From: Bacteriovoracaceae bacterium
GTDB lineage: Bacteria > Bdellovibrionota > Bacteriovoracia > Bacteriovoracales > Bacteriovoracaceae
Direction of reading: 5' to 3'
Assembly: GCA_041586955.1 (NCBI GenBank)
Contig: JBFGZE010000052.1
Location: 1 to 23,195 of the forward strand
Length of the DNA: 23,195 nt
Shown here in pieces: positions 2,820-22,750 of the stretch. The notes below the pieces were generated by a model that ran no database searches, was not told the origin of the DNA, and saw nothing but the letters and a program-made list of their open reading frames with translations. Made by a program: the position numbers and the translations under genes. Each line of letters starts with the position of its first letter. Within the stretch, counting starts at the first letter, position 1.

Positions 2820-5138
2820 TTAGCACTCCTCGCTTTGACCTTCATAATTAATAACGACAAGAGTAACATCGTCGTGTAGAGGTTCGTCCGTTATAAACTT
2901 GTTAAAATCATCCATTATTCCCTCTTTTAATTGGTCAGGCCCTTTATGAGCGTGGCGGATGATAGAGCGGAAAAATTTACGTTCACCATATTCGTTGTCC
3001 GCGCCAAGAGATTTACCTTCTGGTATTCCATCTGTATAGAGGATGATATGATCCTCTGGTTTAATGGTGACAGATTCTTGCTCATATTCTGCATGATGAG
3101 ATTGGCCGAGCCTTGGGCCAGGTTTACAGTCTAGTACCCGAAGATTGTCTTTAAGACCTTTTTCTCCGCGGGAATTGATTTCCGGCATGTCATACCAATA
3201 AATGGGGTCGTGGCTAGCGGAAGCAAAATCAACTTGTCCTGACTTTTTATCAATAATCCCTAAGAAGAAAGTCATAAGAACATTTCCCCGAGAGGATTCG
3301 AAGATAACTTGATTAAGATGTGAGAGCATCTCGCCAGGAGAGCTCATTTGTTCCGGCCCTCTTTTTGCCATAATTTCAATCATGGTAAATGCTGCCTTAG
3401 AGGCGGCCGTAATAAGAGCAGCGGGAACGCCGTGCCCGGTAGCATCAGCGATAGCAAACATGATTTTATCCTCACCAATAGGAATGATACCCCACCAATC
3501 ACCACCACATTCGCTAGCAGGAGTATAATAACTTGAGATGGCAAGACTTGGAAAATGAATATCAGGATGCGGAAACATGGTATCTTGAACCAATTTTGCC
3601 GTTTCCAATTCTTTTTCCATACGTGCTTTGTCTGCTGTCTCTTTGAGTAATTCAATATTGACGTAGGTGAAAGCAATGCTATTAGCAATTGTTTCTGAAA
3701 TATAAATTTCCTCATCTTTCATCATACGATCTTTTGATTGAGGGGAAAGAATGATCGTTCCCACTTTTTGATGACCGGATAAAATAGGGATGATAAAAAG
3801 GTTATATTGATGGAATTGAAGCGATGTTGTTGTATTTTGTTTTAGAACTTCGTGTAGAAGTTCCTTATCTTTTTCAATGGGATCTTGATCCCATCCCTTA
3901 TAATAAATATTATTAGTTAATTCAAAGTGATCCTTTTCTTCGCCAATAATCATTGCACCGCTATCAATAGTTAAAATTTCTAAAAAGGCGTGAAGAGAAT
4001 TATCCATAAGACTCTTTATATTCAGATCAGAACTGATGGCATGAGAGGACTTATTCAATTTATCAAGACTCTCAATTTTATGCTTGATGTTTTTAATCAT
4101 AAGATTAAAGGAAGTTGCCAATGTTTTGATCTCATCATTGGTTTTGATATCAAGATGAACATCAAAATCACCTTTTGAAATTTTAATGGCGGCCAAATTG
4201 AGTTGTTCTAGAGGTCCAATGATTTTTTGAATAAAAAGATAGGCGACGATAAAAGAAAGGGCCAATACTAAAGCGGTAATGAGTAAGGACCTCCTGGCCA
4301 GTCGTTCACCTGTTTCAAAGGCCACATCTTTTTTGACTTGGCCTAGAACCGCTAAATCATAAATACCTAGTTTTGAGTAGGATCCAAGGACATCAACGCC
4401 ATCGACTTGGTATTCTTGAAATTCTCTCGACAAGGAATTTTTAGTAATTTTTTGAATGAGAGGATTGTCCTTAAAGCTTTTTAAATTAATGTCATTTTGA
4501 GTTGTTTTAAAGATCTTACCCATTTTGTTGACGATATAAAGTTCATAAACACCAAGGTCTTCAAAAAAGACATCCATAAAGTTTTTCTTTATGTATACAG
4601 ACAGAAAGGAACGTTGATTACTTTGCTCACCAAATGGCAAAAGGATGATATAAAATGAGTCATTTTTATTAAAGGTCGGGCGATTTGGAATATCGTCGTT
4701 GATCGGCATTTTTTCGGCAGCGATTATTTCGGAAAGCTTTTTAAAATCTTTGTCTTTTTCGTTGAGATTATTCCAATGTTTTTTTACGGTAAAAAATAAT
4801 GGATCAGTGATTTCTTCCTTTAGGAGTTTGATGGAGAGAATATCTGAGTTTTCTTTGAATGGGGTAAGCAAAGCGTTAAGATCATGCCCTTTTGATTCAT
4901 TTTTTGATTGAAGCTTTAAAATATTACCAATAAGAACAGATTTTTGTGTGATTTCATTAAGATAAGATTTGATTTCTTTTGATTTACCGTAGGTGATGAG
5001 ATCTGTTGCAAAGTAGATATTGTTAAGATTATCTTGATTAAAAAGCTTAATAGCATTGTAAACGACTAGACTAATCGAAATAGTCATTGCGAGAAGCAAT
5101 AAGCTTATGAACTTTGTTCCAATGGTTTTATTCAACAT
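2820..5138 (-). CDS. Membrane-bound SpoIIE/RsbU-family PP2C Ser/Thr phosphatase (TM-periplasmic Cache-like sensor-TM-HAMP-GAF-PP2C)
   Basis: 772 aa. Two TM helices flank about 250 aa of periplasmic domain. HAMP (GPLEQL...ISKGDF...DEIKTLATSFNLM), GAF-like segment, RMEKELETAKLVQ helix, and PP2C motifs GGDWW, IADATGHGVPAAL, LYTDGIPE, HDDVTLVV. Confidence 0.93.
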   Translation of the reverse strand: MLNKTIGTKFISLLLLAMTISISLVVYNAIKLFNQDNLNNIYFATDLITYGKSKEIKSYLNEITQKSVLIGNILKLQSKNESKGHDLNALLTPFKENSDILSIKLLKEEITDPLFFTVKKHWNNLNEKDKDFKKLSEIIAAEKMPINDDIPNRPTFNKNDSFYIILLPFGEQSNQRSFLSVYIKKNFMDVFFEDLGVYELYIVNKMGKIFKTTQNDINLKSFKDNPLIQKITKNSLSREFQEYQVDGVDVLGSYSKLGIYDLAVLGQVKKDVAFETGERLARRSLLITALVLALSFIVAYLFIQKIIGPLEQLNLAAIKISKGDFDVHLDIKTNDEIKTLATSFNLMIKNIKHKIESLDKLNKSSHAISSDLNIKSLMDNSLHAFLEILTIDSGAMIIGEEKDHFELTNNIYYKGWDQDPIEKDKELLHEVLKQNTTTSLQFHQYNLFIIPILSGHQKVGTIILSPQSKDRMMKDEEIYISETIANSIAFTYVNIELLKETADKARMEKELETAKLVQDTMFPHPDIHFPSLAISSYYTPASECGGDWWGIIPIGEDKIMFAIADATGHGVPAALITAASKAAFTMIEIMAKRGPEQMSSPGEMLSHLNQVIFESSRGNVLMTFFLGIIDKKSGQVDFASASHDPIYWYDMPEINSRGEKGLKDNLRVLDCKPGPRLGQSHHAEYEQESVTIKPEDHIILYTDGIPEGKSLGADNEYGERKFFRSIIRHAHKGPDQLKEGIMDDFNKFITDEPLHDDVTLVVINYEGQSEEC

Positions 5139-5167
5139 TTATTTATTATAAAATCGAAGCTAAATAT
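5139..5167. promoter_or_regulatory. 29-bp divergent intergenic region with a perfect TATAAT on the minus strand 6 nt before the PP2C start codon (leaderless-type promoter)
   Basis: Minus strand reads TATAAT (5150-5145) AAATAA ATG (5138). Overlapping TATAAAAT on the plus strand. No Shine-Dalgarno for either gene. Confidence 0.5.
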
Positions 5168-7057
5168 ATGGAAGCAATTTATAAAAAGCATATTACCTTT
5201 CTATCTCTACCCACTATCATCGCCATCGTGTCTTCTGTTCTATTGATTTTAGAATTTAGTCAAGATAAACAAAATCAAGCTAGTGATGCTCTTGTTCTTG
5301 CTACGACAGAAGTCATAATAGGAGATGTTAAAAGAAAAATTAATAAAAGGTTTTCCTGGGATGCTATTGCCTATGATAATGACCTTTTTGAGAATGATCT
5401 TATCAGAACAGTAAAAAACTCTAGAGTTCGCATCAAGTTTAAAGACGGAAGTGTGATTGAAATGGGTGAGAATTCTCTTATTTCTATATCTAAATCTGAA
5501 GAAAGCTTATCCATTAATTTTATAAAAGGCGACCTCGAAGCTAAGGTATCAAAGTCGAAAATAAATATTAAGTCAAAGGATGTGCATTTTAATATCGATT
5601 CGTCAGATGCAAAAGTACAAATAAAAGCAGACGGAACTGGTCAGGCCAAAGTTAAAGTAGAAAATGGCACGGCAAATCTTGTTTTAAACGGCAAGAAATT
5701 AAGTGTTGAACAGGGACAATTGGCCACCATTAATGAAAATCAGGCCATTGATGTGAAAGATATTGCTCTTACGACAGTGTTTCCAGTTGAAAAAGACTAT
5801 CATTTTTCCAGAAAAGAAATTAATAAGATTAATTTTAAGTGGGAAATTGTAAAACTTAAAAATAAAAAGACAGCTCAATTAATTATTGAAAAAAAGTCAA
5901 AAAAAACGTTTAAGAGATTTCTCACTAAAGATATTCAAATCGCAGATAAAAATTATGAAGCGACACTGGGCCCAGGGCAATACCGCTGGTATATGGCAAT
6001 AGATAACCAAAAAGTGACTGACAAAGTGTCGTTTTCCTTAGCGGCAAAAATACCCATTGAGCTATTAAGTCCGTCAAAAAATTTTACTCGGGCAATTGAT
6101 CCCTTTAGAGAAGAGGATCTTGAGATTAAATGGAATGGTCCAGAGTATCTCTATGTTTACCGATATGAAGTGGCAAAAGACAGAGCGTTTAAAAATGTTC
6201 TGATCAAAAAATTGATTAAGCGAAATGAGAAAGTTTATATCAATATGAACCATCTTTATGATAATTACTTAAAGTCAACCAATATTGACTCGTTGTTTTT
6301 TCGCATCGTCGGTGAAAAACCTTTGCAGCCTTTGACACAATATAGTTCCAATATAATGGGTCATTTTAGTTCCATTAAAAAAATTAACCTTAAAGGGCCG
6401 CTCAACGAAAGAAGAAGAGATCTTTATCTTACTAATAATGCTAATGTGAATTTTACTTGGGATAAAGTTTCTGGAGCAAAAAGCTATAAAGTGATAAGTG
6501 CAAAGGATGAAAACTTCTTTCAAGAACTGGCACAGCATGAAACAGATTCAAATCAATTAAACTTAACCATCACAAGGCCTCGAAGTTATTATTGGAAAGT
6601 TGAAGGCCTTGATCAAGAAGGGCGGTTGCTAGGCCGCTCTCAAGTATTTCTTTTTGATGCCTTTTCGTCGTTGGTTTTAAATAAGATGGAGGTTCATGCG
6701 CCAGCTGATAAATTGGTTCGAAAATCGATAACACCTAAAGATTTTAATTTATTGTTTGAATGGGCGCCAGACCCCAAGGCCCAAGAATATGTGCTTATGA
6801 TTAGGCCTTTTGATTCCCAATCTCAGCAGCAAACCTTTATAAAAACATTAAAAGATAATCGTTTTGAACTTATTGAATGGCCTGCAGGAAAGTATATCTG
6901 GTCGGTTAAATCTCGTGGGTCGTTTAATGTTGAAAGCGAAAGTTCAAAGGAGAGAGTCTTTACCGTCGATCGTTCCGATCAATTACTCCAAGCTCCGAAA
7001 CTAAAGACTTTTAAATTGATCAAGAAAAATAATAAAAGGTCTAAGAAAAAGCTCTAA
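5168..7057 (+). CDS. FecR-domain protein with N-terminal membrane anchor and several FN3/Ig-like domains
   Basis: ATG at 5168 (MEAIYKK) is preferred over the track's TTG at 5114, which overlaps the divergent gene. One TM helix; FecR signature (GDVKRK...W...LFENDLIRT...SRVRIKFKDGSVIEMGENSLI...VKVENGTA); repeated FN3-like motifs (FKWE...PGQYRWYM; FTWDKV...SYYWKVEG; FEWAP...GKYIWSVKS). Confidence 0.88.
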   Translation: MEAIYKKHITFLSLPTIIAIVSSVLLILEFSQDKQNQASDALVLATTEVIIGDVKRKINKRFSWDAIAYDNDLFENDLIRTVKNSRVRIKFKDGSVIEMGENSLISISKSEESLSINFIKGDLEAKVSKSKINIKSKDVHFNIDSSDAKVQIKADGTGQAKVKVENGTANLVLNGKKLSVEQGQLATINENQAIDVKDIALTTVFPVEKDYHFSRKEINKINFKWEIVKLKNKKTAQLIIEKKSKKTFKRFLTKDIQIADKNYEATLGPGQYRWYMAIDNQKVTDKVSFSLAAKIPIELLSPSKNFTRAIDPFREEDLEIKWNGPEYLYVYRYEVAKDRAFKNVLIKKLIKRNEKVYINMNHLYDNYLKSTNIDSLFFRIVGEKPLQPLTQYSSNIMGHFSSIKKINLKGPLNERRRDLYLTNNANVNFTWDKVSGAKSYKVISAKDENFFQELAQHETDSNQLNLTITRPRSYYWKVEGLDQEGRLLGRSQVFLFDAFSSLVLNKMEVHAPADKLVRKSITPKDFNLLFEWAPDPKAQEYVLMIRPFDSQSQQQTFIKTLKDNRFELIEWPAGKYIWSVKSRGSFNVESESSKERVFTVDRSDQLLQAPKLKTFKLIKKNNKRSKKKL

Positions 7058-10000
7058 TTCTTTTAAAACATTTCTTGAAACTTATAAATAAGATAAGTAA
7101 ACCAGGTGTCGAATTAAAAAAGAAGTTAAGTATTTTTTCCCAGAAAGATAATGGTCTTTCATCAAAGGGGGATGCAAAGGCCGAACAACCTCCGCCTCCT
7201 GTGCCTCCAGGAATAACTTTGACAATATCACCATTACTGCTTGGATTAAATCCAAAGACACTTTCAACTTGATCATCAACACCATCATTATCGGTGTCAC
7301 GATTATTAGGATTAAGGCCTCGGCCAATTTCTTCAGCATTACTAATCCCATCGCCATCATTATCAATTGTGGCATCAGAGCTATCATATGGGTTGAGTCC
7401 ATAAGCAATCTCATCAGCATTGCTTATTCCATCGCCATCATAATCATTACTATTGGCGACTGTCAGCGCGAAGTTTTGATCAACGGATCCACCATGATTA
7501 TCAGATGCCCTGACAGTAATGTTTGAGATACCCACTTGGATGATTGTAGGGGTCCAAGAAATAATACCATTTGAGGGATTAATGCTCATTCCTGTCGGAG
7601 AGGCCATTAAGGAATAGGTGATACTTGTATTGATATTGGGATCATTGATATTCACATCATAAGTCCAAGGTAATAAAACATTTAAGTTGGTATTGGGACT
7701 TGTTGAAATGATTGGGGCAGTGTTATTAAGAGTGATTTGATTAGCAGAAAATAGATGAACGTCACTATTGACTGCGCTTTCTAATTTCGCACAAATAAAA
7801 TAAGCTCCTGGTGCGATATCGGATGCACTTATCGTAAGGGAGTCAGAAGCACCATCTGCTAGGCCACTTATTCCTGACATTATTAAGGTTGCATTGGTGT
7901 CGCAATTTCCAGTATTGACCGTTTTAGCATAAATGGAAATATTAAAACTATCATTTTCATTATCTTGATCGGTCCAAGTGACAGTAAAGGTACTAGGATC
8001 AGAGAAAGAATCCCCGACCCCATTTGGTTCGATAAAATTAATCTGGGGAGCAACATTATTACTAATAAAGGAATTGCTATTAGTGTTCATGCTAATGGTT
8101 CCCCCTGTCCCCGTTGTGTCAATTTTGGTCGCCGTTAATTGGTAATTGATACCACTGGCAGTCAAGTGAACATTTTCACCGGTAAAATCGACTATTCCGG
8201 CAGTTAAATTTTTAGATACATTTCCAGCGAGGGCGCCAGGTCCTGAGAGTAGAGTTAAATTAATGGTTGTCGTCGAATCAACTCCAGATGTGATGGTATT
8301 ACCATAAGCATCAATAATTTTGGCAGATATGGGAATTTCAGTATTAGCATTGGTATCATTGGGTTGGTTGACAATGACCACGGCCGATGCCGGTCCATGA
8401 GTAATACTAAAACTACTACTCGTTTTATTAAAACTATTTGTTCCGCCTGAACCAGAAGTATCGGCTTTTGTTGCCGTAATGGTTTTGGCACCAACCAAGT
8501 CGATATAAACGCCTTGGCCAGTAAAGTCCACCACTCCGGCAATTGCATTGATGGCCATTGTTCCGGCCAATGTTCCTGTTCCTGATTGTAGAGTTAAGGT
8601 CGTAAGGGCCGTCGCATCACTGCCGGTCGTAACGACATTACCGAAACTATCTTGGATTTCTATGAGTGGATTAATCTCAGCACCTGCGAGAGAATTCACT
8701 GGTTGATTGATGTATGTTAGTTTATTGGCAATGGCATGGGTTATATTAAAACTTGCTGAAATAGCGGCCATACTTGCTGTTCCACCTGAACCGGTGGTAT
8801 CTGACTTCGTGGCGGTAATGTTTTTGGCGCCAATGAGATCGATATTGACTCCAAGTCCTGTGAAATCAGCGATACCGGCCACAGCATTACTAGCAATAGT
8901 TCCTAAAAGGCTCCCTGTTCCGCTCGTTAAAGTGAGTGTAATGAGTGCTGTCGAGTCAATTCCTGTTGTGACAGTATTACCAAAGGTGTCGAGAATTTTA
9001 ACAACCGAAGCTATTTCTTCCCCGGCCACTGTATTACTAGGCCCCGTTGTAAAATTAACTGAGGTCGCTGTGCCAAAATTAATGGTAAAACTTGCCGAGG
9101 TATCATTCATACTGGCGGTGCCACCTGAGCCGGTGGTATCGGCCTTGGTGGCGGTAATGGTTTTGGCGCCAATCAAATCAATATTGACTCCCTTCCCAGT
9201 AAAGTCAGCAACACCGGCCACGGCATTCATGGATACGGTTCCGGCAATGGTGCCCGTGCCAGTGGCAAGAGTGAGTGTTATTTGCGCGGTGGCATCAGCA
9301 CCTGTTGTAACGGTATTGCCAAAGGCGTCCAGAATAGTAATCACAGGGGCAATCTCGTCACCAGCATCGGTATTAGCGGGTTCAGTCGTAAAGTCAATTG
9401 TGGAGGCGGAATTGTGGACAATGGTAAAACTTGCCGAGGTATCATTCATACTGGCGGTGCCACCTGAGCCGGTGGTATCGGCCTTGGTGGCGGTAATGGT
9501 TTTGGCGCCTATCAAATCAATATGAACTCCCTTTCCAGTAAAGTCCGCGACACCGGCCACGGCATTCATAGATACCGTGCCGGCAATGGCGCCCGTGCCA
9601 GTGGCAAGAGAGAGCGTTATTTGCGCGGTGGCATCAGGTCCTGTTGTAACGGTATTGCCAAAGGCGTCCAGAATAGTAATCACGGGAGCAATTTCATCAT
9701 TAGCGGTTGAATTACTAGGCTCCACAGTGAAATCGATATGGTCAGCTAAGTCTAATCCTGTGCCGGAGATTGCCTTATCCGAATCAACCGTGATCGTTCC
9801 GTTATGATAATTTGATCGAAATGTGTCTGCATGTACTCCATCGGTTATTGGGTTAAAACTTATATCCACAGTACAGCTGACTAAGAAGGAGAGACTTGTT
9901 CCACAGGTGGTTGACGAAATATTATAATTGGTCCCAGTTAAAAGAGACCTGGTAAAACTAGTTGCGTTATTGGTTCCATTATTAATAATCGTTAGTGTTT

Positions 10001-12698: not shown

Positions 12699-12720
12699 CG
12701 AGCTAACCCTCTTTTATATT

Positions 12721-12745
12721 GTATCGGTTTAAATTGAGACCTTTA
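12721..12745 (-). promoter_or_regulatory. Possible sigma28 (FliA)-type promoter for the giant surface protein
   Basis: Minus strand TAAAG-N12-ACCGATAC, ending 22 nt upstream of the TTG start. The spacer is 2 nt shorter than the enteric consensus TAAAG-N14-GCCGATAA. Confidence 0.35.
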
Positions 12746-12857
12746 TAAGTGCCCGAGATTAAAAGTTAATTTAAATATTATTAATTGTTATTTTTTTTAA
12801 AATCGACCGAAAAACTTGGCATTATTTTGAAGGCAATTGTGGGGTAATTAAGAAACC

Positions 12858-14405
12858 TTAATTGATGAAGTAAGTGAGACCTAAATATAGGGAGTTAAGT
12901 TGTTGCTTAACACTGCTTTCGCTTTGTAAAAAATTTAAATTTCCAGAGTAGGTTGAACTTAAGCTTTGTCGTGAATAACCAATGTTTAACAATATATTTT
13001 GTTTAAACGGTTGGTAACTAAAATTAATTTTTAATTCGCTAAGAGAGCTGCTCGCCTCTTCACTTATTTTGATGGGAGTTTCGGTAAGAGTGAGTTTGGG
13101 GGCGAATTTATAGGAAAGCTGCAATTGATATTTTTCATTAAAGATAATGTTCCAGTTTAAATTTAAACAGAGTCCACTTACTTTATGCGCGATAAGGCTA
13201 AAGGGCGTTTCTGGTGGTGAAAATTCTTGTGAGTAAAGGCCAAGGTCAAGGCGGGGAGTATGTAAAAAACGTTTGGTTTTATATAAATTAATGAGGCTTA
13301 AATAGGCGTACTGCTCATTAAATTCTGCCTCGAAGGTGGTGCTATCAACACGATTATAATTTAAGCTTCCTTTTTTGATACTTATCCCTGCACCCAAGTA
13401 TTTCCAAAAATTGGAATCAATTTGAAACTCGGTCATATTTAAAGAGGAATGATCATTTTTTTTAAAGTCATTTTGACTGGTATTTGTAATGGAACCAAAA
13501 GAATAATTGGCTGCAAGGGTCAAAAGATTGGAGAAACGCTTTCTAAGCATGGAAAAATTATGAATAGCGCATTGTTCATCAATCCCAAATTCATCGATAG
13601 GGCAAACTTTAAGGGAGTAGTCACCATCTTCAAGAAATTTAATAAAAGAGGTTGTTTTAAACTGGGCATTTAAGATGATACTTGCTTGGTCGTTTTCCTT
13701 TTTTGTTATTTCGACAAAATAGGAGTTTATTTTTTTGATGGGAGTCCAATTAAAATAACTCATAGGTGAAGAAAATCTGATGTTCTCTTTTGGAGATATT
13801 ATTGTGATCGGAGAGAGATCGGGTCGCTCTATAATCGTTATATATTCTCTTTCACTATCCTCACTGGTGACGCCATTGATCTTTGAGTGGACGGCAAAAC
13901 TATAATCACCAGGTCCTGGAAACTCAATGTCATGATTATTCGTTGTAATATCGCCTGTGAAAATAATATCTTCATTTTTCCAAACTTGGAGAAAGAAAGA
14001 CGTTTCTTGATGAAAGCTTTCCCAACGCAAATTTATTTTTTTGACTTTTCCCGCGCGAGCGTAAATCGGAGTGTCTTTTTGCGGGAGCGGTTTTGGCGCC
14101 TCTGGCCTAACATCGATGAGGGAGGGAGCGCTCCAGAGGCCTTGGCGACCGAGGTAATCATTGGCAGAAATTTGAAATTGATAGCGGCCGGGAGGAATTT
14201 GAATCTTGGCGATACTTTCTTGGGATTTTTTTTCTAAGATAAGGCGATCATTTATGGTTTTAATTCTAATATTATAGGACTTGGCCAATGGGACTTTTTC
14301 CCATGCGAGCTCAATAATGGAAACTGGTGTTTGTGCTGGCGTATTGAGAGAAATGAATGAACAAATGATTATGATAAAATGCCTGAAATGCTCTCGCAGG
14401 TACAT
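12858..14405 (-). CDS. Secreted protein with about 3 N-terminal FN3-like domains and a probable C-terminal outer-membrane beta-barrel
   Basis: 515 aa with signal peptide. FN3-like units (LAWEKVPLAKSY...PPGRYQFQISANDYLGRQGLWS; LRWE...PGDYSFAV; FNWTP...DGDYSLKV). The last ~225 aa are alternating amphipathic strands ending LYLGLTYFIN, resembling a beta-signal. Confidence 0.75.
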   Translation of the reverse strand: MYLREHFRHFIIIICSFISLNTPAQTPVSIIELAWEKVPLAKSYNIRIKTINDRLILEKKSQESIAKIQIPPGRYQFQISANDYLGRQGLWSAPSLIDVRPEAPKPLPQKDTPIYARAGKVKKINLRWESFHQETSFFLQVWKNEDIIFTGDITTNNHDIEFPGPGDYSFAVHSKINGVTSEDSEREYITIIERPDLSPITIISPKENIRFSSPMSYFNWTPIKKINSYFVEITKKENDQASIILNAQFKTTSFIKFLEDGDYSLKVCPIDEFGIDEQCAIHNFSMLRKRFSNLLTLAANYSFGSITNTSQNDFKKNDHSSLNMTEFQIDSNFWKYLGAGISIKKGSLNYNRVDSTTFEAEFNEQYAYLSLINLYKTKRFLHTPRLDLGLYSQEFSPPETPFSLIAHKVSGLCLNLNWNIIFNEKYQLQLSYKFAPKLTLTETPIKISEEASSSLSELKINFSYQPFKQNILLNIGYSRQSLSSTYSGNLNFLQSESSVKQQLNSLYLGLTYFIN

Positions 14406-14406
14406 C

Positions 14407-14841
14407 CTAGTGCATGGCCTTGTAAATATCCGGATTTGTTATTTTGGTGACTTTCATTATCGCCTCTTTAACATCTTTATCGTCAAAAGGCTTAACCAAA
14501 ATGTTCTTAACACCTAAAGTAATTGCCTCACGCACGCTATTTTCATCGATGGATGCGGTCATAATGACAATTGGTAAAAATTGATTCGTGTTTTTATTAT
14601 TGATATTTTTTCGGACATAGGAAGTCTTGAAGATTCTAATGAACTCAATTCCCGATCTCAGGGGGATATCAAGGTCTAGGAAGATTACATCAAAATCTTG
14701 GAGACCCGCTTTTTGTAAACCCAGTCTACCATTATCTGCTTCAGCATATAAGGTATCGTAGTAGCAAAGATGAACAGTCTTTTTAAATTGCTCTCTGAAT
14801 TCCTGATCATCTTCAACGGTTAATATTTTTAATTTGCCCAT
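14407..14841 (-). CDS. Single-domain CheY-like response regulator
   Basis: 144 aa; ILTVEDD, FLDLDIP (phospho-Asp), IMTA, VKPF. Its stop codon is 1 nt before the ATG of the FN3-barrel gene. Confidence 0.92.
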   Translation of the reverse strand: MGKLKILTVEDDQEFREQFKKTVHLCYYDTLYAEADNGRLGLQKAGLQDFDVIFLDLDIPLRSGIEFIRIFKTSYVRKNINNKNTNQFLPIVIMTASIDENSVREAITLGVKNILVKPFDDKDVKEAIMKVTKITNPDIYKAMH

Positions 14842-14882
14842 AATTTCTCTAATAGATCCACTGCCATAATTTTACATCAAAT

Positions 14883-14902
14883 AATAAATAAATAAATAAA
14901 TA
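14883..14902. repeat. (AATA)5 simple sequence repeat in the divergent promoter region
   Basis: Read directly: aata aata aata aata aata at 14883-14902. Confidence 0.75.
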
Positions 14903-14933
14903 ATTGCTTAATATTTCGCGGAATAAAAAAGAT

Positions 14934-14942
14934 TGATACAAT
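14934..14942 (+). promoter_or_regulatory. Possible extended -10 (TGnTACAAT) for the kinase-STAS-CheA-like operon
   Basis: TGA TACAAT about 31 nt upstream of the ATG at 14974; GAAGGG SD-like sequence just before the start. Confidence 0.3.
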
Positions 14943-14973
14943 AGTTAAGATAATTTTGTGAAATGAAGGGTAT

Positions 14974-16554
14974 ATGGATAAAGAAATTTTAGGTAAAAAA
15001 ATTCTGGTGGTGGATGATCTTGAAGGAATGAGGTCCCTTCTAATAGAAGAGCTCTTAAGTTTAGGGTTTGAAAGACCTTTAGAGGCAGAAGATGGCGCTG
15101 AGGCGTTGGAAATTTTAAAAAACAATTTCGGTACTCCCAATCAGGTGGAGATTATTATTTCCGATTATGAAATGCCCATAATGAACGGTTATGAATTTTT
15201 AACCGCAATTAAAGCTGACCCTCAATTTAAGGATATTCCTTTTTTAATTGTATCTGCCTTAACGGACAAGAAGGAAGTTTTACGCTGTATCAAAGCTGGT
15301 GTCAGTAATTTTGTCATTAAACCCATTACCTCAAAATCCCTCGAAGAGAAAATTACCAATTTGTTTAAGCCGTCTTCAGAGAATTTAAATGAACCAACCA
15401 ATGAAGGTGAATTAGAGAGTACTTTTGGTGAGGCCTTTGATTTTGCTGATAAGATTTTAAATTCTATGTTTGATGGGGTCATCGTTGTCAACCATCACGG
15501 AACCATCCAAAAAGTCAATAAGGCAACCGCTGATCTCCTCGGCACCACTCTCGATCTTGTCGCGGGGAAAATATTACCTGATATTTTCCTCAATATGGAT
15601 TTAATAAATGAAAAAATTGAGTCTGTGGAAAAAACTAAAATGCCTGAAACAAACATTTCTTCCCTGATGATTATACCTGGTGAAGACCCGAAAGATTGTT
15701 TAGTTTCGATTACACCCTCTGGTGATGATCTTATATTTTGCGTCAAAGATATTAGTGAATTAGAAAGTTTAAAGAAAAATTTAAATTTATCACAAAATTT
15801 AAACTCAGTGATCAATATGGCCAACCTTTCGGAGCTTTATTCCAGAATTGCTCACGAGGTAAGGAATCCTTTGGCATGCATCTCTATGATCAGTCAACGG
15901 GCCATAACCTGTCTCGAAAAAGATAAACCTCAAGATGCTTTGGACCAGCTTAATAACATTAAAAAGCATGTCAAGGTAACGACAGAAATTTTTGATAATA
16001 TGAAAAAACTGGCAAGAGGTCAGTGCTGGTTAGAAGGTGAATTGTGCTCAGTAAAATCTATTGTCGACGATACGCTATTGATCCTCTCTGTCCGCTTAAA
16101 AAATGATGATATTACTTTAAACCTTGAGATCACAGATGAGGTGAAAGCAATAAAAATTCCTTGCCGCTCAACTCAGATTATTCAAATATTAGTCAACCTC
16201 ATTAATAATGCGATGGATGAAGTCCTGGGAGTTGATCAGCATAAAATTACATTGAAAGTCACCCTAGAAGATTCAAATATTGTATTTGCCGTCAGTGATT
16301 CAGGATCAGGAGTACCCCAAGATTTACGTTCTGAAATTTTTAAGCCATTTTTTTCGACAAAAAACAAGGGCGCGGGAACAGGCCTTGGACTAAGTATTGC
16401 TTCAAAAATAGCAATAGACCACTCCGGAGAAATATTTTTTGATGAGCAAAGTGCAGAGTCAACTTTTAAACTCGTGCTTCCCCTTGAAAATGAAAGTCTA
16501 ATGAATGACGAAGCTAAAACGATTGATATTAGTCAGTTTATTGTTAATAAATAG
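14974..16554 (+). CDS. Cytoplasmic hybrid histidine kinase REC-PAS-HisKA-HATPase
   Basis: 526 aa. Receiver (ILVVDD, ISDYEMP, VSA, IKP); PAS (ILNSMFDGVIVVNHHGTIQKVNKA); H-box IAHEVRNPL; N-box LVNLINNAMD; DSGSGV; FKPFFSTK; GTGLGLSI. No TM segment. Confidence 0.95.
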   Translation: MDKEILGKKILVVDDLEGMRSLLIEELLSLGFERPLEAEDGAEALEILKNNFGTPNQVEIIISDYEMPIMNGYEFLTAIKADPQFKDIPFLIVSALTDKKEVLRCIKAGVSNFVIKPITSKSLEEKITNLFKPSSENLNEPTNEGELESTFGEAFDFADKILNSMFDGVIVVNHHGTIQKVNKATADLLGTTLDLVAGKILPDIFLNMDLINEKIESVEKTKMPETNISSLMIIPGEDPKDCLVSITPSGDDLIFCVKDISELESLKKNLNLSQNLNSVINMANLSELYSRIAHEVRNPLACISMISQRAITCLEKDKPQDALDQLNNIKKHVKVTTEIFDNMKKLARGQCWLEGELCSVKSIVDDTLLILSVRLKNDDITLNLEITDEVKAIKIPCRSTQIIQILVNLINNAMDEVLGVDQHKITLKVTLEDSNIVFAVSDSGSGVPQDLRSEIFKPFFSTKNKGAGTGLGLSIASKIAIDHSGEIFFDEQSAESTFKLVLPLENESLMNDEAKTIDISQFIVNK

Positions 16555-16562
16555 GAAATAAT

Positions 16563-17006
16563 ATGAGTAGTTTAAAGGTAACAATTAATGGCGAAAAAGT
16601 AGAGCTGGATGGATATTTAGATGAAAAATCTGATTTAACAGTATTAAAAGAGCTCAATGGAGATATTATTGTCGATTTCAAAAATTTAACCCGCATAAAT
16701 TCATGTGGGGTAAAGGAGTGGGTTGAGGTCATTAATACAGGAGATAAAAATTTATCCTATGATAATTGCTCCTTGGTTACTGTTAAGCAATTAAATGCCG
16801 TGCCCGATTTTATGGGTGGTTCTCGCGTAATTAAATTTTACGCTCCGTACTATTGTGAAGAATGTGATGAGGAACGAGAGTGCCTTTTAGAAGTGGCCAA
16901 TTTTGATCCTGGTAATGTGCCCGAATTAAAATGCTCTGAGTGTGAGCACGCCATGAGTTTTGACGGTGTCGCAAGTCATTACTTTAGCTTTTTAAAGAGA
17001 GACTAA
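16563..17006 (+). CDS. STAS-like (anti-anti-sigma-like) domain fused to a C-terminal CxxC...CxxC zinc ribbon
   Basis: 147 aa. VELDGYLDE and IIVDFKNLTRINSCGV (Ser47) align with the STAS LxGxLD and D(L/F)xxxxx(I/M)DSxG motifs. C98-EE-C101 and C124-SE-C127. AGGA SD overlaps the upstream stop codon. Confidence 0.8.
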   Translation: MSSLKVTINGEKVELDGYLDEKSDLTVLKELNGDIIVDFKNLTRINSCGVKEWVEVINTGDKNLSYDNCSLVTVKQLNAVPDFMGGSRVIKFYAPYYCEECDEERECLLEVANFDPGNVPELKCSECEHAMSFDGVASHYFSFLKRD

Positions 17007-19679
17007 ATGGGCATACCATCACAAACATCTATTTCTAGCGATAAAAATCTTTATCAAAGTATTTATAATTATTCTCAAGATGGCGTGTTGATTGTTAGGC
17101 CAGAAACCTTCCAGATTTTATTTTTAAATACCAAACAAGTTGATCTTTCTGGCCACGAAGAGAGTGATCTTTATCAATTATCATTTCTCGATCTTTTTTT
17201 TGATGAAGATATTGAAGCGATAAAAACCATTCTTGAATCGACCATTCAATGGAAAACAGGCCTTGACCCTTTACGTATCATGAAACGAGGTTCAGGCCGA
17301 AAATTATACATTGAGATGACGACCTCTTTGGTAAATTTTGAAATGAGTGACGCCATTATGGTCACAGTCAGGGATATTTCAGAGCGGGTTAAACACGAAA
17401 AGAAAATTAAAAAATATAGTGAACAATTGGAACAATTAAACTCTGAGCTTGAAGCAAAGGTCGAAGAGCGCACCCAAAAACTTAAGCATGCCAACGATGA
17501 CTTGGTCCAGCAAAACACCTTTATAACGAATCAGAAAAAAGAAATTTCCGATATCATGAATAATATTCATCAGGGAATTATAACCATTGCACCCAATCTC
17601 ATAATCAATAAAGAATTTTCCTCCTTTATGAAAGTTCTTTTCCCTCAGGCCAAAATTGCTGGTCAAAAAATCAGCACTTTCCTTTATCAAGAGGGGAATG
17701 AGGACGATGCGTCGGTCTTAGATGAGGCCTTAGAGACCATTTTTTCTGATCCCAGTTTATGGGATATGGTGGAGGAGTTACTGCCCAAAGAAATAAATAT
17801 TGGAAATAGAGAAATTACATTATCTTGGGTTCCAATTATTATAGGTGAAAAAGTACTGAAGTTTCTTTTGATTTTTACTGACGTGACAGAGGAGAGAGAG
17901 CTCCAAAGAGAGATCTCAAGTCAGAAGGAAGAAAATGATCAAAAAGTCGAAATTCTTTTAAAATTATTAAAATATCCAAAGGACGTTTTGAATAAATTTG
18001 TCAGTGGGGCAACAAAAAACCTCAATAAGATGAATATTATGTTACAAAAACCCTCTTGGAGCAGTAGCGAAAATTTAAAAGAATTATTTCGCATCTTGCA
18101 CACTCTTAAGGGCGCTGCCAATCAAATGGGGCTCCAGCGAATGGCCAATGAATGCCATCTTTTGGAAGACCAATTAGGTTTAGATATTAACGAACAAAAA
18201 TTTTTGAGAGACGTTGAGTCACTAGATAAGCAATATAAAATCATTTTTAATTTTTATGAGAAAACAACAAATAGTTCACCAGAAATAGAAAGTTCTAAAA
18301 AAGATAAATATAAGACCACATTTGTACAAAGTTTATTAAAAGTAAATGAACAACAAGAACTACTTCGAAAATTTATGCACCTAGAAGGGGAGAGTGTCGA
18401 TTCAATTAGGGAGAATATGGCTGATCTGGTTGATAAAACGTCAACCTCATTAGGGAAAGATATTCGATTTGAATTTGAGTCGGAAACATTCTTTTTAGAC
18501 AAGAAAAGTATAGGTGATCTGAACGATGCCCTTTCTCATATTGTTCGCAATGCCATTGATCACGGGATTGATCAAACAGGCGATCTTAAAATTAAGTTTG
18601 AAAATAATAAATACCATTTATTAATCCAGATCATTGATAATGGAAAAGGTATTGATATTGAAAAACTGACTGAAAAAATTATAAGCAATAAAATTAAGAC
18701 TGAGTCAAAGTTAAATAATTTAGCAGCAGAAGAAATAATTCAATATGTTTTCCATAGTGGTCTAAGTACCAGGGATAATGTTTCAGATATCTCAGGTAGA
18801 GGTGTCGGCCTAGATGCAGTAAAAAATATTATTGAAAATGATCTAAACGGGAAAGTTTATGTCACTTCTTTGCCCAATAAAGGGACAATTTTCCATATTA
18901 TGCTACCAACTCCCTTAGCAATGTTTGAAGGGCAGTATTTAGAAATAGACAAGCAAGCGAAGGTCTTTAAATCTTATGATACCTTAAAACAACTTTTTTC
19001 TAATATAGATAAGTATGATCATTTTATTTACCCTGCAAACACAAGATTTCATCAACTAGAAAAGACTACAAGTTTAAAATATCATCATCTTTATACTTGG
19101 GGGATGGAAGTTTACTTGAATCCTAATTATCAAATGATGGAATTAAAAATAAAGGATTTTAAGCTAAAAAGTCATTATTTAGATCAGGTGTATCTCTATT
19201 TATCATCACACATTACGAGTAGCACCATTTTAAACGCAGTTATTGAGACTTGTGATGAACTCATTATGAATGCCATATTTGATGCTCCTCGAAATCTTGA
19301 TGGCAGTGTAAAGTACAATCATCTTAGCCGTTCAAAGTATGATATTGTTTTAGAAAATCACGAGCAGGGCATACTGAAAATTGGGTTCGATAAAGATTTT
19401 CTTGCAATATCAATGGAAGATCCTTTTGGCTCATTAACAAAAGAAACGGTGGTTAAGTATATCTATAAAGCAATTCAAACTGAGAATAAAATATCTAATG
19501 AATCCGCTGGGGCCGGATTGGGCCTCTCTCAGATATTTTTAAATTCAAATTATATGGTGATCAATTCGTGTCCCGGTAAGCGAAATGAAATGATTTCTCT
19601 TATCAATTTGGCAAAAACGAATAAGTCCAGATTATTGAATGGCCATAGTTTCAGCTTCTTTGAGCATCCTCACATTTAA
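17007..19679 (+). CDS. CheA-like (class II) kinase PAS-coiled coil-PAS-Hpt-HATPase, no CheW domain, with a C-terminal second RsbW-like HATPase domain
   Basis: 890 aa. Hpt ELFRILHTLKGAA (His365); HIVRNAIDHG, IDNGKGID, VFHSGLST, SGRGVGLDAVK; then DELIMNAIFDAP (from D750), ISMEDPFG and GAGLGL (from G835). The ATG directly abuts the STAS gene stop. Confidence 0.88.
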   Translation: MGIPSQTSISSDKNLYQSIYNYSQDGVLIVRPETFQILFLNTKQVDLSGHEESDLYQLSFLDLFFDEDIEAIKTILESTIQWKTGLDPLRIMKRGSGRKLYIEMTTSLVNFEMSDAIMVTVRDISERVKHEKKIKKYSEQLEQLNSELEAKVEERTQKLKHANDDLVQQNTFITNQKKEISDIMNNIHQGIITIAPNLIINKEFSSFMKVLFPQAKIAGQKISTFLYQEGNEDDASVLDEALETIFSDPSLWDMVEELLPKEINIGNREITLSWVPIIIGEKVLKFLLIFTDVTEERELQREISSQKEENDQKVEILLKLLKYPKDVLNKFVSGATKNLNKMNIMLQKPSWSSSENLKELFRILHTLKGAANQMGLQRMANECHLLEDQLGLDINEQKFLRDVESLDKQYKIIFNFYEKTTNSSPEIESSKKDKYKTTFVQSLLKVNEQQELLRKFMHLEGESVDSIRENMADLVDKTSTSLGKDIRFEFESETFFLDKKSIGDLNDALSHIVRNAIDHGIDQTGDLKIKFENNKYHLLIQIIDNGKGIDIEKLTEKIISNKIKTESKLNNLAAEEIIQYVFHSGLSTRDNVSDISGRGVGLDAVKNIIENDLNGKVYVTSLPNKGTIFHIMLPTPLAMFEGQYLEIDKQAKVFKSYDTLKQLFSNIDKYDHFIYPANTRFHQLEKTTSLKYHHLYTWGMEVYLNPNYQMMELKIKDFKLKSHYLDQVYLYLSSHITSSTILNAVIETCDELIMNAIFDAPRNLDGSVKYNHLSRSKYDIVLENHEQGILKIGFDKDFLAISMEDPFGSLTKETVVKYIYKAIQTENKISNESAGAGLGLSQIFLNSNYMVINSCPGKRNEMISLINLAKTNKSRLLNGHSFSFFEHPHI

Positions 19680-19736: not shown

Positions 19737-19892
19737 GCGATAAGACCTTTGTCCTCGTTGATTAATTGTTTACCGATGCGCAAATGTTTATTGCGTTGCG
19801 CTGTCTGCGCTATCGTTTCAATAAATCCTCGCCTTTGGTAAATAATATCAATACGAGGTTTGAAAACCGTAATTTCTCATTTAACATATTTT

Positions 19893-20543
19893 ATGATCAT
19901 AAAAATCTTATCTATTTTCTTAATTTTCAGCAACTCCACCTGGGCCACATGTGGTACCTTCGTTGAACCCCGTCATGAGCTGGTGGCCAGTACATTATCT
20001 CAAAATGAAGATAATATCTGGAACGATACAGATCGATTTAATTTAACATTTTGTGTATCAGATAAATTTGGTAAATATAAACCCCAGATCATTGATGCTG
20101 CAAACTCTGCGGCCGAAAAATGGATGGAGCATGCTAATGTTCGATTTATTTATATTGGCGATGAAGATGCCAATTGTGTCAAAACACAAAAAACCATTTT
20201 TTCTATTACTCGATCCGTAAAAAGGTTGCCTTTTTCAATGAAGGCCTTTTTCCCAAACGCAGAAAGAAAGAATCGCCATATTAGAGTTAATGAAAAGTAT
20301 CTACATATGACTTCATATATAAGAAATACCATGTTACATGAATTTGGGCATGTACTCGGCTTTCGGCACGAACAAATCCATCCCAAGAGTCCATCTCAGT
20401 GCAGGGAAGAAGATCAAAATTATAGACCTATTACTGATTATGATATTGACTCAATTATGCACTATAAAAGCTGTGGAGGCACAGGTTTTGGGGATCGATT
20501 AAGTCCTCTTGATCAAGACGGTGCGGCCCAGATGTATCCATAA
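19893..20543 (+). CDS. Secreted zinc metalloprotease (metzincin; M57/astacin/matrixin-like)
   Basis: HEFGHVLGFRH (HExxHxxGxxH), Met-turn YDIDSIMHY, LTFCVS. ATG at 19893 gives a clean signal peptide (MIIKILSIFLIFSNSTWA) and is preferred over TTG at 19860. Confidence 0.92.
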   Translation: MIIKILSIFLIFSNSTWATCGTFVEPRHELVASTLSQNEDNIWNDTDRFNLTFCVSDKFGKYKPQIIDAANSAAEKWMEHANVRFIYIGDEDANCVKTQKTIFSITRSVKRLPFSMKAFFPNAERKNRHIRVNEKYLHMTSYIRNTMLHEFGHVLGFRHEQIHPKSPSQCREEDQNYRPITDYDIDSIMHYKSCGGTGFGDRLSPLDQDGAAQMYP

Positions 20544-20694: not shown

Positions 20695-21558
20695 ATGAAC
20701 TCTATTTTAATCTCTCTGTTAGCTACTTTGTGTATAAATCAATCGTTTGCGATTGCGCCCTTTGATTTGAGCGCTCATAGGGGAGATCAAGCTAAACATA
20801 TTGAAAATACAATTGGTGCGTTTGAGGATGCCATTAAAAATGGTGCTCGATCAATTGAATTTGATGTTCATCTTACGCGCGATGGAGTTGCTGTCATTTA
20901 TCATGACTTTATATTAAGCGCTAAAAGATTTGTTGGCCTTGACGAAGATAGATATATTAATGAATTAAGCTATGTTGAAATTTCTAAACTCGTTTATAGT
21001 TCGAGTAATAGTAGAATCCTTACTTTGGATGAATTATTTGAATCTATGAGTGAGTTAAAAAAAGAAAAATATAAGTTCATTATGCATATGGAAATAAAGG
21101 TCGATGAATCAACGAATAAAAATCTTATGTTAAAAACGATTTCTCATAAAATAAGAAGATCGGCCCTGAGGGAGAGGGTCATCGTGAGATCTTTTGATAT
21201 CGATTTTTTAATTTCATTTAAAAAAGTGGCAAAAAGTATTAAGCAAGTTCTTCTCTTTGAACAAGGAGAAATTCCCTCCCAAAAAGAACTTTCAAAAATC
21301 CAAAAGATATTAAATGCTCAGGCCATTGCCCCATTTTACGGTGATGTTGATCGAGAATTAATTCAAAGGTCTAGGAAATTGAACCTTCAGGTACTACCGT
21401 GGACAGTGGATAATTTAGCGGAGGCAATAAAACTTATTAATTTAGGTGTCAGTGGAATCACCACAAATTATCCTCAAAGATTTGCAACGCTTGTGAAAAA
21501 CACAAATGATAGTGGAGAGTGTTTCTTTAATCTTCATCAACTTCTTATCACAAAATAG
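20695..21558 (+). CDS. Secreted glycerophosphodiester phosphodiesterase (GDPD; GlpQ/UgpQ family)
   Basis: 287 aa with signal peptide; SAHRG, ENT, IEFDVHLTRDG, YHD, EIK, SF, PWTVD, GITTNYP. Confidence 0.95.
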   Translation: MNSILISLLATLCINQSFAIAPFDLSAHRGDQAKHIENTIGAFEDAIKNGARSIEFDVHLTRDGVAVIYHDFILSAKRFVGLDEDRYINELSYVEISKLVYSSSNSRILTLDELFESMSELKKEKYKFIMHMEIKVDESTNKNLMLKTISHKIRRSALRERVIVRSFDIDFLISFKKVAKSIKQVLLFEQGEIPSQKELSKIQKILNAQAIAPFYGDVDRELIQRSRKLNLQVLPWTVDNLAEAIKLINLGVSGITTNYPQRFATLVKNTNDSGECFFNLHQLLITK

Positions 21559-21589: not shown

Positions 21590-22750
21590 TTATGAAGTGG
21601 CCTCTTTCATCTTGAATCTTTTATGAAGGTTAAAGAAAATGGCCGGCATGATACTGGTGAGAAGAGTATAGCTAATCAGTCCGTATCCTATGGCGCTATC
21701 AACTTCTTCTCGTTCCAGTAAAATATTCGCGGTGATGAGTCCAAAAATGAGGGTCGGCATGAGAGCAAGAGAGACCTTATAATTGTCGAATTTAAGTTTT
21801 TTAAACAAAAATTTAAAACTATTATTAATAAGAACCATTCTTAGTGGAACAAAGATGATAAACATTGATAACCCTATCATAAGGGCCGGTGTGTCGAATT
21901 TATATATTGATAACTTTAATCCCGCATAAAAAAAGTAAAATGGCAGAAATACACTAAAAAAACCAGACAAAGACCTAAAGAGTGCCTCCTCGCCCTCTTT
22001 AAAAATATTCCTTTTAAATCTCGATCCTATCAACCCCACTGCAAAGGCGCCTACCAAATAATAGGCCCCTAGCTCTTTTGAAATAACTCCTGAAATCAAA
22101 GAAAGAGCGACGAGGAAGGGAATTTCAGAATTAGGTGCATAGGGAGAGATAAACTTAAAAAATATTCGATAAATAAAAGGTAAAAATATAAATAAACCAA
22201 TAAAAAATGATAATGAGATGAGTATCGCTTTCAGGTCATTTCCCTGTAGCGCCATAAAAAGTAGTATGATAGATAAAACTTCCTTACAGATGGCCTTTGA
22301 TTTTATCCAATATTCTTGGTTTGGGCTTACTTCATAAGAGTGAAGGGAAGATAAAATAAACCCCGCAGATGGTGTAAAAATTCCTAGGGATAAGATGACT
22401 GCATTTTGAATGTTTAATGCGAAGATGTTCTTGATTCCAACAGTAATGATGGCCAAGACAATCGTAAATTTGGCCAGATACTTACCCAGGTAAACTTTAT
22501 CTTGCTTTAACTCATGAAAGTCCACTTCAAGACCCGCAAATAAAAACAGAGAGGTGATACCAATCTGGGAAAGAAAGCGAAAGAGAAGATCATTTTGGAC
22601 TGCTGGATCAATTAGGGATACACAGATACCGATAAATAGCGCGGTTATTCCTGATGGGATTCTAAACCTTAAAAAGATTTTAGGTAAAATCAAAACTGAT
22701 GAGAATAGAGCGAGGTACTCCAAATCCTTAGTTAACAAAATTTCAGGCAT
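21590..22750 (-). CDS. Cation:proton antiporter (Na+/K+:H+ exchanger, CPA2-like), membrane domain only
   Basis: 386 aa with about 12 hydrophobic segments; LSQIGITSLFLFAGLEVD, LVGAFAVGL, FLPFYFFYAGL; GAGGAG SD upstream. Confidence 0.88.
   Translation of the reverse strand: MPEILLTKDLEYLALFSSVLILPKIFLRFRIPSGITALFIGICVSLIDPAVQNDLLFRFLSQIGITSLFLFAGLEVDFHELKQDKVYLGKYLAKFTIVLAIITVGIKNIFALNIQNAVILSLGIFTPSAGFILSSLHSYEVSPNQEYWIKSKAICKEVLSIILLFMALQGNDLKAILISLSFFIGLFIFLPFIYRIFFKFISPYAPNSEIPFLVALSLISGVISKELGAYYLVGAFAVGLIGSRFKRNIFKEGEEALFRSLSGFFSVFLPFYFFYAGLKLSIYKFDTPALMIGLSMFIIFVPLRMVLINNSFKFLFKKLKFDNYKVSLALMPTLIFGLITANILLEREEVDSAIGYGLISYTLLTSIMPAIFFNLHKRFKMKEATS

Follow-up and report, generated by a model that had tools for sequence, protein, structure and literature searches.

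A candidate sigma-less partner switch in a Bacteriovoracaceae bacterium and the conserved cassette to which it belongs

Introduction

Partner switches that dispense with a sigma factor are already known from the SiaABCD system of Pseudomonas aeruginosa, in which the PP2C phosphatase SiaA, the kinase SiaB, the STAS-like protein SiaC and the diguanylate cyclase SiaD form a pathway with an enzyme rather than a sigma factor as its output (PMC7647112; PMC8457831); the second report describes binding of SiaC to the SiaD stalk and the prevention of this binding by phosphorylation at T68 (PMC8457831). Here we analyse one whole contig of 23,195 nucleotides (JBFGZE010000052.1, referred to as the window) from a 3.46 Mb, 88%-complete Bacteriovoracaceae assembly (GCA_041586955.1). 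An earlier note, made from the sequence alone, had proposed that eight genes between positions 2820 and 19679 constitute a sigma-less partner-switching circuit around a giant surface protein. We favour, with a probability of roughly 0.6, the reading that most of this block derives by rearrangement from a conserved cassette, a SiaABCD-like partner switch without a sigma factor that gates an enzyme and is fed from the envelope. The cassette itself is a real and widespread variant of partner switching and is apparently undescribed; a literature search returned no description of the STAS family, of its PAS partner or of the FecR-PP2C pairs, although subscription papers and supplements could hold a mention.

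The window resembles SiaABCD in combining a membrane PP2C with a Bergerat kinase and a STAS-like protein, and some relatives of its cassette also have a GGDEF output. It differs in having a CheA-like kinase as output, in the interchangeability of the family outputs behind a PAS domain, in its input of FecR-FN3 and barrel proteins, and in its phosphatase, which scores 82.8 bits with the SiaA model NF038263 against a cut-off of 700. With the RsbU-RsbV-RsbW-sigmaB and SpoIIE-SpoIIAA-SpoIIAB-sigmaF systems of Bacillus it shares the same three folds and a phosphoacceptor serine at the same position, and the features expected of an RsbU/V/W-type system are present (PP2C metal-binding aspartates, the STAS serine, and Bergerat N, G1 and G2 boxes without HisKA). 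It departs from these systems in its N-S-C-G motif in place of D-S-x-G, in the frequent fusion of the family kinase to phosphatase or effector, and in the rarity of sigma genes at its loci. LvrC of Leptospira, a response regulator with receiver and Bergerat domains, resembles the window kinase domain in fold, with 18% identity over 147 residues, and free kinases of the window family have an N-terminal extension; LvrC, however, has been proposed to act downstream of a histidine kinase as an anti-sigma factor, and the main text of that report does not mention STAS (PMC13269768). Campylobacterota clusters of FecR, a CHASE2 adenylate cyclase and TPR or outer-membrane proteins likewise place FecR beside a membrane enzyme without an extracytoplasmic function (ECF) sigma factor (PMC9239204). 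In the cassette described here the enzyme is a PP2C, or a CheA-like kinase at two paralogous loci, and FecR has FN3 repeats as well as, in many cases, a barrel-like tail. The window CheA-like protein differs from chemotaxis CheA in having no CheW-like P5 domain. The NsrA/Cya system of S. meliloti is reportedly a further comparison of the FecR/cyclase type.

Results and discussion

At E values up to 1e-3 the STAS family profile finds 4532 clusters (50% identity), although some of the weak ones are possibly ordinary STAS proteins, and the family is present in 213 of 301 genomes of the phylum and also in myxobacteria. Among 468 matched GTDB stretches, the best 80 derive from Bacteriovoracaceae, Kofleriaceae, Haliangium, Polyangia, other Myxococcota and one Fibrobacteria bin, and the nearest named relatives of the window protein are labelled Bacteriovoracaceae and Bdellovibrionota. 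Two sets of loci were surveyed over as much as 10 kb of flank in either direction, many of them being cut short by contig ends: set 1 (n=100) comprises 20 of 27 non-self matches together with the best 80 GTDB stretches, and set 2 (n=60) comprises further loci hand-chosen across families (locus L192 lies on the same contig as L086). Near the STAS gene there is a PP2C gene in 79 loci of set 1 and 42 of set 2 (121/160), a kinase gene in 58 and 44 (102/160), and a FecR gene in 37 and 32 (69/160), with PP2C alongside FecR in 37 and 30. PP2C, kinase, FecR and the family PAS domain are found together with STAS at 33 and 13 loci (46/160). The earlier note had named, as part of what would refute its proposal, a complete lack of synteny in relatives between the half of the block with the phosphatase, FecR, surface protein and barrel and the half with the hybrid kinase, STAS and CheA-like genes; the joint occurrence of genes from both halves runs counter to this and supports the proposed link between them. 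A sigma-70 region-2 match is near STAS in just 2 and 1 loci (3/160), as expected of a sigma-less architecture. The usual order in Bacteriovoracaceae is a FecR gene divergent from PP2C, then the kinase (free or PP2C-fused), STAS, a kinase of PAS, histidine kinase and receiver domains, and a receiver gene; Myxococcota loci contain PP2C, the kinase, TPR proteins, one or two STAS genes, a PAS-histidine kinase and a receiver. The STAS protein of the cassette is also present in the cultured Halobacteriovorax marinus (L097).

The STAS-like switch protein (147 aa; 16563-17006, + strand) has a STAS core at residues 1-92, with Ser47 in an N-S-C-G motif, and a C-terminal extension of the form CxxC...CxxC. 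No Pfam family matches it at E up to 0.1, and the Pfam STAS family matches just 5 of 21 relatives; Pfam and NCBIfam miss or under-score this family. The family profile matches the anti-sigma antagonist TM1442 (E 0.0023), with N46-S47-C48-G49 aligned on D-S-A-G, and the predicted structure (predicted local distance difference test, pLDDT, 95) is closest to RsbV (Z 9.2, root-mean-square deviation 1.9 over 87 aligned residues). Residues 1-92 of the model match RsbV, TM1442 and SpoIIAA, and SiaC more weakly (Z 5.8); the Z values are moderate, but the eight best-ranked rows are STAS domains without exception. This result and that for the kinase domain below come from a VIA-align wide search, in which residues 93-147 of the STAS protein were barely covered. 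Ser47 is invariant in 79 of 79 aligned family sequences, and in a second set of 64 the motif pattern scored 60, the four misses still showing N-S-x-G. The earlier identification of a STAS-like protein with a conserved serine therefore stands, and the model indicates that the window protein folds like RsbV with a zinc-ribbon-like C-terminal extension. It differs from SiaC in having serine rather than Thr68, in lying closer to RsbV, and in its 55-residue extension. All four cysteines are present in the window protein, although the two CxxC motifs are kept in only 69/79 and 34/64 family sequences; zinc binding was therefore rejected as the defining trait, and it is the C-terminal extension that marks the family. 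STAS domains are also found fused to Hanks-type kinases, to a PDZ protein or to their own Bergerat kinase (P0051, P0120, P0139, P0125, P0004, L161:9773-11125), and the window genome has a canonical STAS protein with a D-F-V-G-S-S-G motif at C105:2774-3229.

The kinase domain is the C-terminal part of an 890-aa fusion protein. Its CheA-like part (17007-18920, + strand) has the Pfam architecture PAS - coiled coil - PAS - Hpt(H365) - HATPase and is homologous to CheA-like kinases beside relatives' STAS genes (E 1e-28 to 1e-32), and it is followed by the SpoIIAB/SiaB-like Ser/Thr kinase domain (18927-19679, + strand; E751, N755, D805, G835-G839). Pfam leaves this domain unnamed, RsbW/SpoIIAB family models match only the CheA ATPase stretch of the protein and not the kinase tail, and there is no PF13581 match above cut-off in the window assembly. 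A model of the last 250 residues (pLDDT 80) best matches SpoIIAB (Z 12.6, root-mean-square deviation 2.8, 135 aligned), followed by SiaB (11.5), LvrC (11.2), UsfX (11.1) and RsbW (10.6), which leaves SiaB about one Z unit behind SpoIIAB and level with LvrC and UsfX; histidine-kinase ATPase domains reach 7.0 or less. The motifs are well conserved among 104 family domains (ExxxN in 104, DxxG in 100, GxGhG in 96). Together these data agree with the previous description of an RsbW-like kinase domain fused to a CheA-like kinase. In relatives the domain is a free gene or is fused to PP2C, STAS or GGDEF. PF19788 matches one of 16 kinase-family proteins (E 0.001), and DUF6272 is presumably the label of SiaB-type kinases.

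These folds raise the question of whether the output is a classical but distant one, with the kinase domain acting as the anti-sigma factor of a sigma factor whose gene lies elsewhere, STAS antagonising the kinase domain, and the neighbouring kinases serving as further inputs. SpoIIAB, LvrC, UsfX and RsbW are all among the best matches, a weak N-terminal receiver match is seen in one of the 16 kinase proteins, the genome encodes six sigma-70 proteins, one relative (L053) has an ECF sigma gene about 0.9 kb upstream of STAS, and LvrC has itself been suggested to sequester a so far unidentified sigma factor (PMC13269768). We nonetheless regard this explanation as unlikely, as it accounts poorly for the scarcity of sigma genes across the 160 loci and for the fusion of the kinase domain to membrane PP2C, GGDEF or STAS in many relatives, and it leaves the recurring PAS partner unexplained.

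The phosphatase is a 772-aa SpoIIE-type membrane PP2C (2820-5138, - strand) consisting of a transmembrane segment (6-33), a periplasmic sensor, a second transmembrane segment (280-310), and HAMP, GAF-like and SpoIIE domains (Pfam SpoIIE E 8e-36, HAMP E 6e-13, CodY GAF-like E 0.0014), with motifs at D547, D565, D703 and D756/757. The 88%-complete assembly has no second SpoIIE match above the cut-off. The start of the PP2C gene lies 29 bp from that of an inner-membrane-anchored FecR-FN3 protein (5168-7057, + strand; probable start ATG 5168, longest open reading frame from 5114), which has one hydrophobic stretch and a Pfam FecR match of E 4e-8. The same head-to-head arrangement is seen in 34/37 and 25/30 relative loci that have both genes. 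Although a FecR domain is present, neither of the FecIRA-type signalling partners (an ECF sigma factor and a TonB-dependent transducer) is found in the block.

In many relatives the FecR-FN3 protein is a single polypeptide of about 1000 aa with a barrel-like end. FecR proteins of at least 700 aa occur at 27/37 and 14/30 loci, and 25/27 and 9/14 of these have an aromatic residue in the last five positions; outer-membrane barrels tend to end with an aromatic residue. The window and loci L039, L040 and L064 instead have a shorter FecR-FN3 gene and a separate FN3-barrel gene, which in the window encodes FN3 repeats and a predicted outer-membrane beta-barrel (515 aa; 12858-14405, - strand). The C-terminal domain of this protein resembles outer-membrane protein and autotransporter barrel clusters in Atlas (0.93-0.94), and NCBIfam LIC11435 matches it below cut-off (E 9e-9). 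It is probably the detached C-terminal half of the long FecR proteins, and a profile comparison with FecR C-termini gives a match of 97% carried by the FN3 part; for the barrel part alone (0.2%), homology to the barrel-like tails of the long proteins was not detected. A further candidate for the window layout with a barrel gene, L157, was dropped because its 424-aa and 373-aa neighbours have no significant match.

Two further FecR genes in the window genome (C36:3112-7814, L126; C143:16-3346, L127) are head-to-head with membrane sensor-HAMP kinases that have a CheA-like ATPase and no CheW domain, with an Hpt domain in one by Pfam, and the sensor of one of these kinases is homologous to the PP2C sensor (E 8e-30). 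Since these FecR genes face CheA-like sensor kinases, the FecR-sensor input appears to be reused with different outputs, and the two pairs are a short-circuit form of the input seen in the window.

On the output side, the gene 3' of STAS usually opens with a PAS domain and a coiled coil. The conserved residues of this family PAS are N28, R/K40, E79 and D114, with R or K at position 40 in 76/79 and 33/34 sequences and E at position 79 in 76/79 and 33/34. The domain is present at 88/100 loci of set 1, a count that is partly circular because the profile was trained on the same loci, and at 34/60 of set 2. As a held-out test, nine further whole genomes were searched with a profile made from 20 histidine-kinase PAS domains, and the PAS at a STAS locus ranked first in seven and second in two, whether it preceded a CheA-like kinase, GGDEF, a cyclase or a myxobacterial kinase. 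Five other high hits were inspected; one is beside a further STAS gene, one is in a PAS-GGDEF-kinase fusion, and three have no STAS gene near. The 34 PAS effectors of set 2 are 18 CheA-like, 9 GGDEF, 6 HisKA and 1 other, and set 1 adds class III cyclase, GGDEF-EAL and stand-alone forms; GGDEF follows the family PAS in 9/34 and 5/120 proteins. As judged from these domain compositions, the output is interchangeable between histidine kinase, CheA-like kinase, GGDEF, GGDEF-EAL and cyclase. A CheA-like relay as the output, proposed for the window beforehand, thus recurs beside STAS in relatives (18/34, set 2), although as one of several outputs and not as the only one.

Two further phosphotransfer proteins are encoded in the block. 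The hybrid histidine kinase (14974-16554, + strand) has the order REC(D64)-PAS-HisKA(H294)-HATPase by Pfam and motifs, with its receiver first, unlike the relatives' PAS-HK-REC kinases in which the receiver is last, and it is at most a putative orthologue of these. Its PAS domain is the sole match in its own genome to the family PAS profile, and a non-significant one (E 0.19). The single-domain receiver (14407-14841, - strand; Pfam Response_reg E 1e-17) likely has D56 as its phosphoacceptor, and a receiver-bearing gene is present in 70 of 100 relative loci.

A plausible mechanism is that the FecR-FN3 and barrel proteins pass an envelope cue to the periplasmic sensor of PP2C, which would set the phosphatase activity, and that PP2C opposes the SpoIIAB-like kinase domain on Ser47 of STAS; the folds and motifs point to this pairing, as does the fact that these are the only clear copies in the assembly. 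By neighbourhood, and by analogy with SiaC and SiaD, STAS would then gate the effector, its unphosphorylated form presumably being the one that binds, as with SiaC. The choice of binding form is close to even, as the conserved PAS arginine could equally read phosphoserine. In most relatives STAS may bind the effector at its dedicated N-terminal PAS-coiled-coil. In the window, where the effector carries the kinase as a fusion and no longer has the PAS signature, STAS would therefore most likely dock on the fused kinase domain and control autophosphorylation of His365 from there, with phosphate passing to D56 of the lone receiver or D64 of the hybrid-kinase receiver. The window is thus a derived, atypical member of the family. 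Two loci of another genome (L039, L121) encode PAS-GGDEF-kinase fusions that also have low-scoring PAS domains, which suggests, as an anecdote of three cases, that kinase fusion can replace PAS as the docking site for STAS.

Several observations weigh against this interpretation. The canonical STAS protein encoded on contig C105 offers both phosphatase and kinase another possible substrate. The relative loci share a common descent and were chosen on score, not sampled randomly, Myxococcota loci are without FecR, and in five genomes of one other family, chosen since their main locus lacks the kinase gene, that gene is off the main locus elsewhere in the genome. Beyond the circularity of the set 1 count, the family PAS is absent from 26 of the 60 set 2 loci, and the family does not come out as a single clade in a PAS tree built from 46 rows, in which 19 of 43 inner branches are open. 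The family profile gives the window PAS domains 15.7 and 14.9 bits, scores no higher than those of unrelated PAS domains in the same genome, and the first of the window domains has neither R40 nor E79 and groups with a close relative (L041) and an unrelated PAS domain of its own genome (99/97).

The PAS observations in particular would also fit a switch of PP2C, kinase and STAS with an unknown target, in which PAS enzymes and envelope genes are merely co-inherited or co-transcribed neighbours; the scattered tree, the loci without the family PAS and the missing signature in the window would all follow. Mutual information between STAS and PAS gave no signal above shuffled pairings, at low power (78 paired rows, effective number 43; top z 6.3 against 5.9-7.3 in five shuffles). 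However, PAS stays beside STAS across five types of output enzyme and two phyla, and at loci with two STAS copies a PAS gene is within 600 bp of each copy in 25 of 30, as though the two had been duplicated together. We therefore think it improbable that these genes are neighbours without contact, and prefer the SiaABCD-like gating of an enzyme.

The surface protein, which the earlier note had placed at the centre of the circuit, is not upheld as a core part. This 1885-aa protein (7041-12698, - strand) has five FN3-like repeats, Ig-like repeats, He_PIG and three TSP3 motifs by Pfam, and its tail consists of GGGGC followed by a hydrophobic and a basic stretch. It has no full-length match in 150 family genomes; only residues about 985-1530, the Ig repeats, find counterparts among other large proteins, in 8 of the 150, and in three of these eight with a known STAS locus the match is on another contig. 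The same convergent position, or one close to it, holds at 21 of the 37 FecR loci a gene, picked by eye, for a surface protein that is rich in glycine and anchored at its C-terminus, whereas 10 loci are without such a gene and 6 are without the flank. The window protein has no homology to these glycine-rich proteins, and the idea that it shares their anchor was not supported, its tail falling outside the top 25 of 2704 C-termini ranked with a profile of those anchors. The glycine-rich family (340-530 aa, 19-28% glycine, with a Cys-transmembrane-basic C-terminal anchor) often occurs with a collagen-repeat gene, is found at L021:15817-18652, L097:1265-4294 and about 19 other loci, and is unnamed by Pfam and NCBIfam where tested.

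The surface gene could nevertheless encode a contact sensor that signals through barrel and FecR to the phosphatase, since it follows the receiver and barrel genes on one strand (gaps of 1 and 159 bp), overlaps the FecR stop, and occupies a position that so often holds a surface gene in relatives. Given the lack of a full-length match in the 150 family genomes, the lack of homology to the surface proteins at this position in relatives and the FecR loci that do without any such gene, this is quite improbable. The position often holds surface genes, and the window's own is likely a local, accessory addition; lying downstream of receiver and barrel, it would be no more than a co-expressed adhesin. 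We give almost no credence to a role of the CheA-like protein in chemotaxis, as a kinase working with receptors whose genes lie elsewhere, since although NCBIfam CheA models match it below cut-off (E 5e-46 and 5e-29), Pfam finds no CheW domain in the 890-aa protein, and PF01584 (CheW) has no match in the 88%-complete assembly as compared with 8 of 14 control genomes. The window genome encodes three CheA-like kinases, yet no CheW domain was found in that assembly.

A more far-reaching form of the SiaABCD-like reading, which we put forward tentatively and hold to be doubtful, is that the STAS-extension protein and the PAS-coiled-coil form a plug-in phosphoserine reader that places histidine kinases, CheW-less CheA-like kinases, diguanylate cyclases and adenylate/guanylate cyclases under the control of one Ser/Thr switch; that the FecR-FN3-barrel is one protein tethering the outer membrane to the inner and reporting surface contact or envelope strain to the phosphatase; and that this is a phylum-wide circuit of predatory bacteria, rewired in the window by the kinase-effector fusion. 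The cassette is widespread among Bdellovibrio-like predators and myxobacteria and may bear on how these sense prey or surfaces. If STAS does gate a histidine kinase by way of a PAS domain or a fused kinase domain, it would form a direct junction of Ser/Thr partner switching with two-component or cyclic di-GMP signalling, and would extend the SiaC-SiaD scheme to interchangeable enzymes.

With regard to the block itself, open reading frame calling returned all eight genes as originally read, and Pfam, profile and fold searches confirmed their domains; the Pfam families matched are SpoIIE with HAMP, FecR, fn3/He_PIG/TSP3, Response_reg, HisKA/HATPase_c/PAS and Hpt. Also as originally read, no sigma factor, DNA-binding regulator, methyl-accepting chemotaxis protein, CheW, CheB or CheR family is matched in the block by Pfam or NCBIfam. 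The description of one contiguous block is correct in that the eight genes adjoin, but they form four strand-units and not a single operon: PP2C (- strand); FecR-FN3 (+ strand), head-to-head with it; receiver, FN3-barrel and surface protein (- strand); and hybrid kinase, STAS and CheA-like fusion (+ strand, gaps of 8 and 0 bp). In public contigs from three DNA runs of one marine study the block is without joints or gaps, and one run, possibly the source sample, covers 30 of 30 bins of it, with no single piece spanning the block; no RNA run was listed as holding it. Scanning 12600-15100 for promoters yielded 9 sites where 8.2 would be expected. A short A/T-rich repeat with AAAT runs (14873-14913) lies in the divergent gap between the receiver and the hybrid kinase.

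The flanking genes, by Pfam, encode a B12-binding radical SAM enzyme (849-2726), a zincin-like metalloprotease (19860-20543), a glycerophosphodiester phosphodiesterase (20695-21558) and a cation/proton antiporter (21590-22750), and none of the four recurs among the neighbour clusters of 100 relative loci. Elsewhere in the family, two cassettes with a PAS-GGDEF output (L022:9767-15500 and L027:7193-13000) adjoin a Flp/Tad pilus cluster (prepilin peptidase, CpaB, secretin). One genome (G171; L142-L149) has 12 STAS-family copies, several of them within FecR-PP2C-STAS cassettes whose large neighbouring proteins differ and include a beta-helix protein. Within a single family of the phylum, a conserved receiver protein of about 640 aa with a large unnamed C-terminal part is encoded 3' of STAS (L134:10351-12279), with similar genes at L137, L163, L167, L170 and L174, and a PilZ-domain gene lies directly 3' of STAS at L040:9062-9814 and L169:10265-10987.

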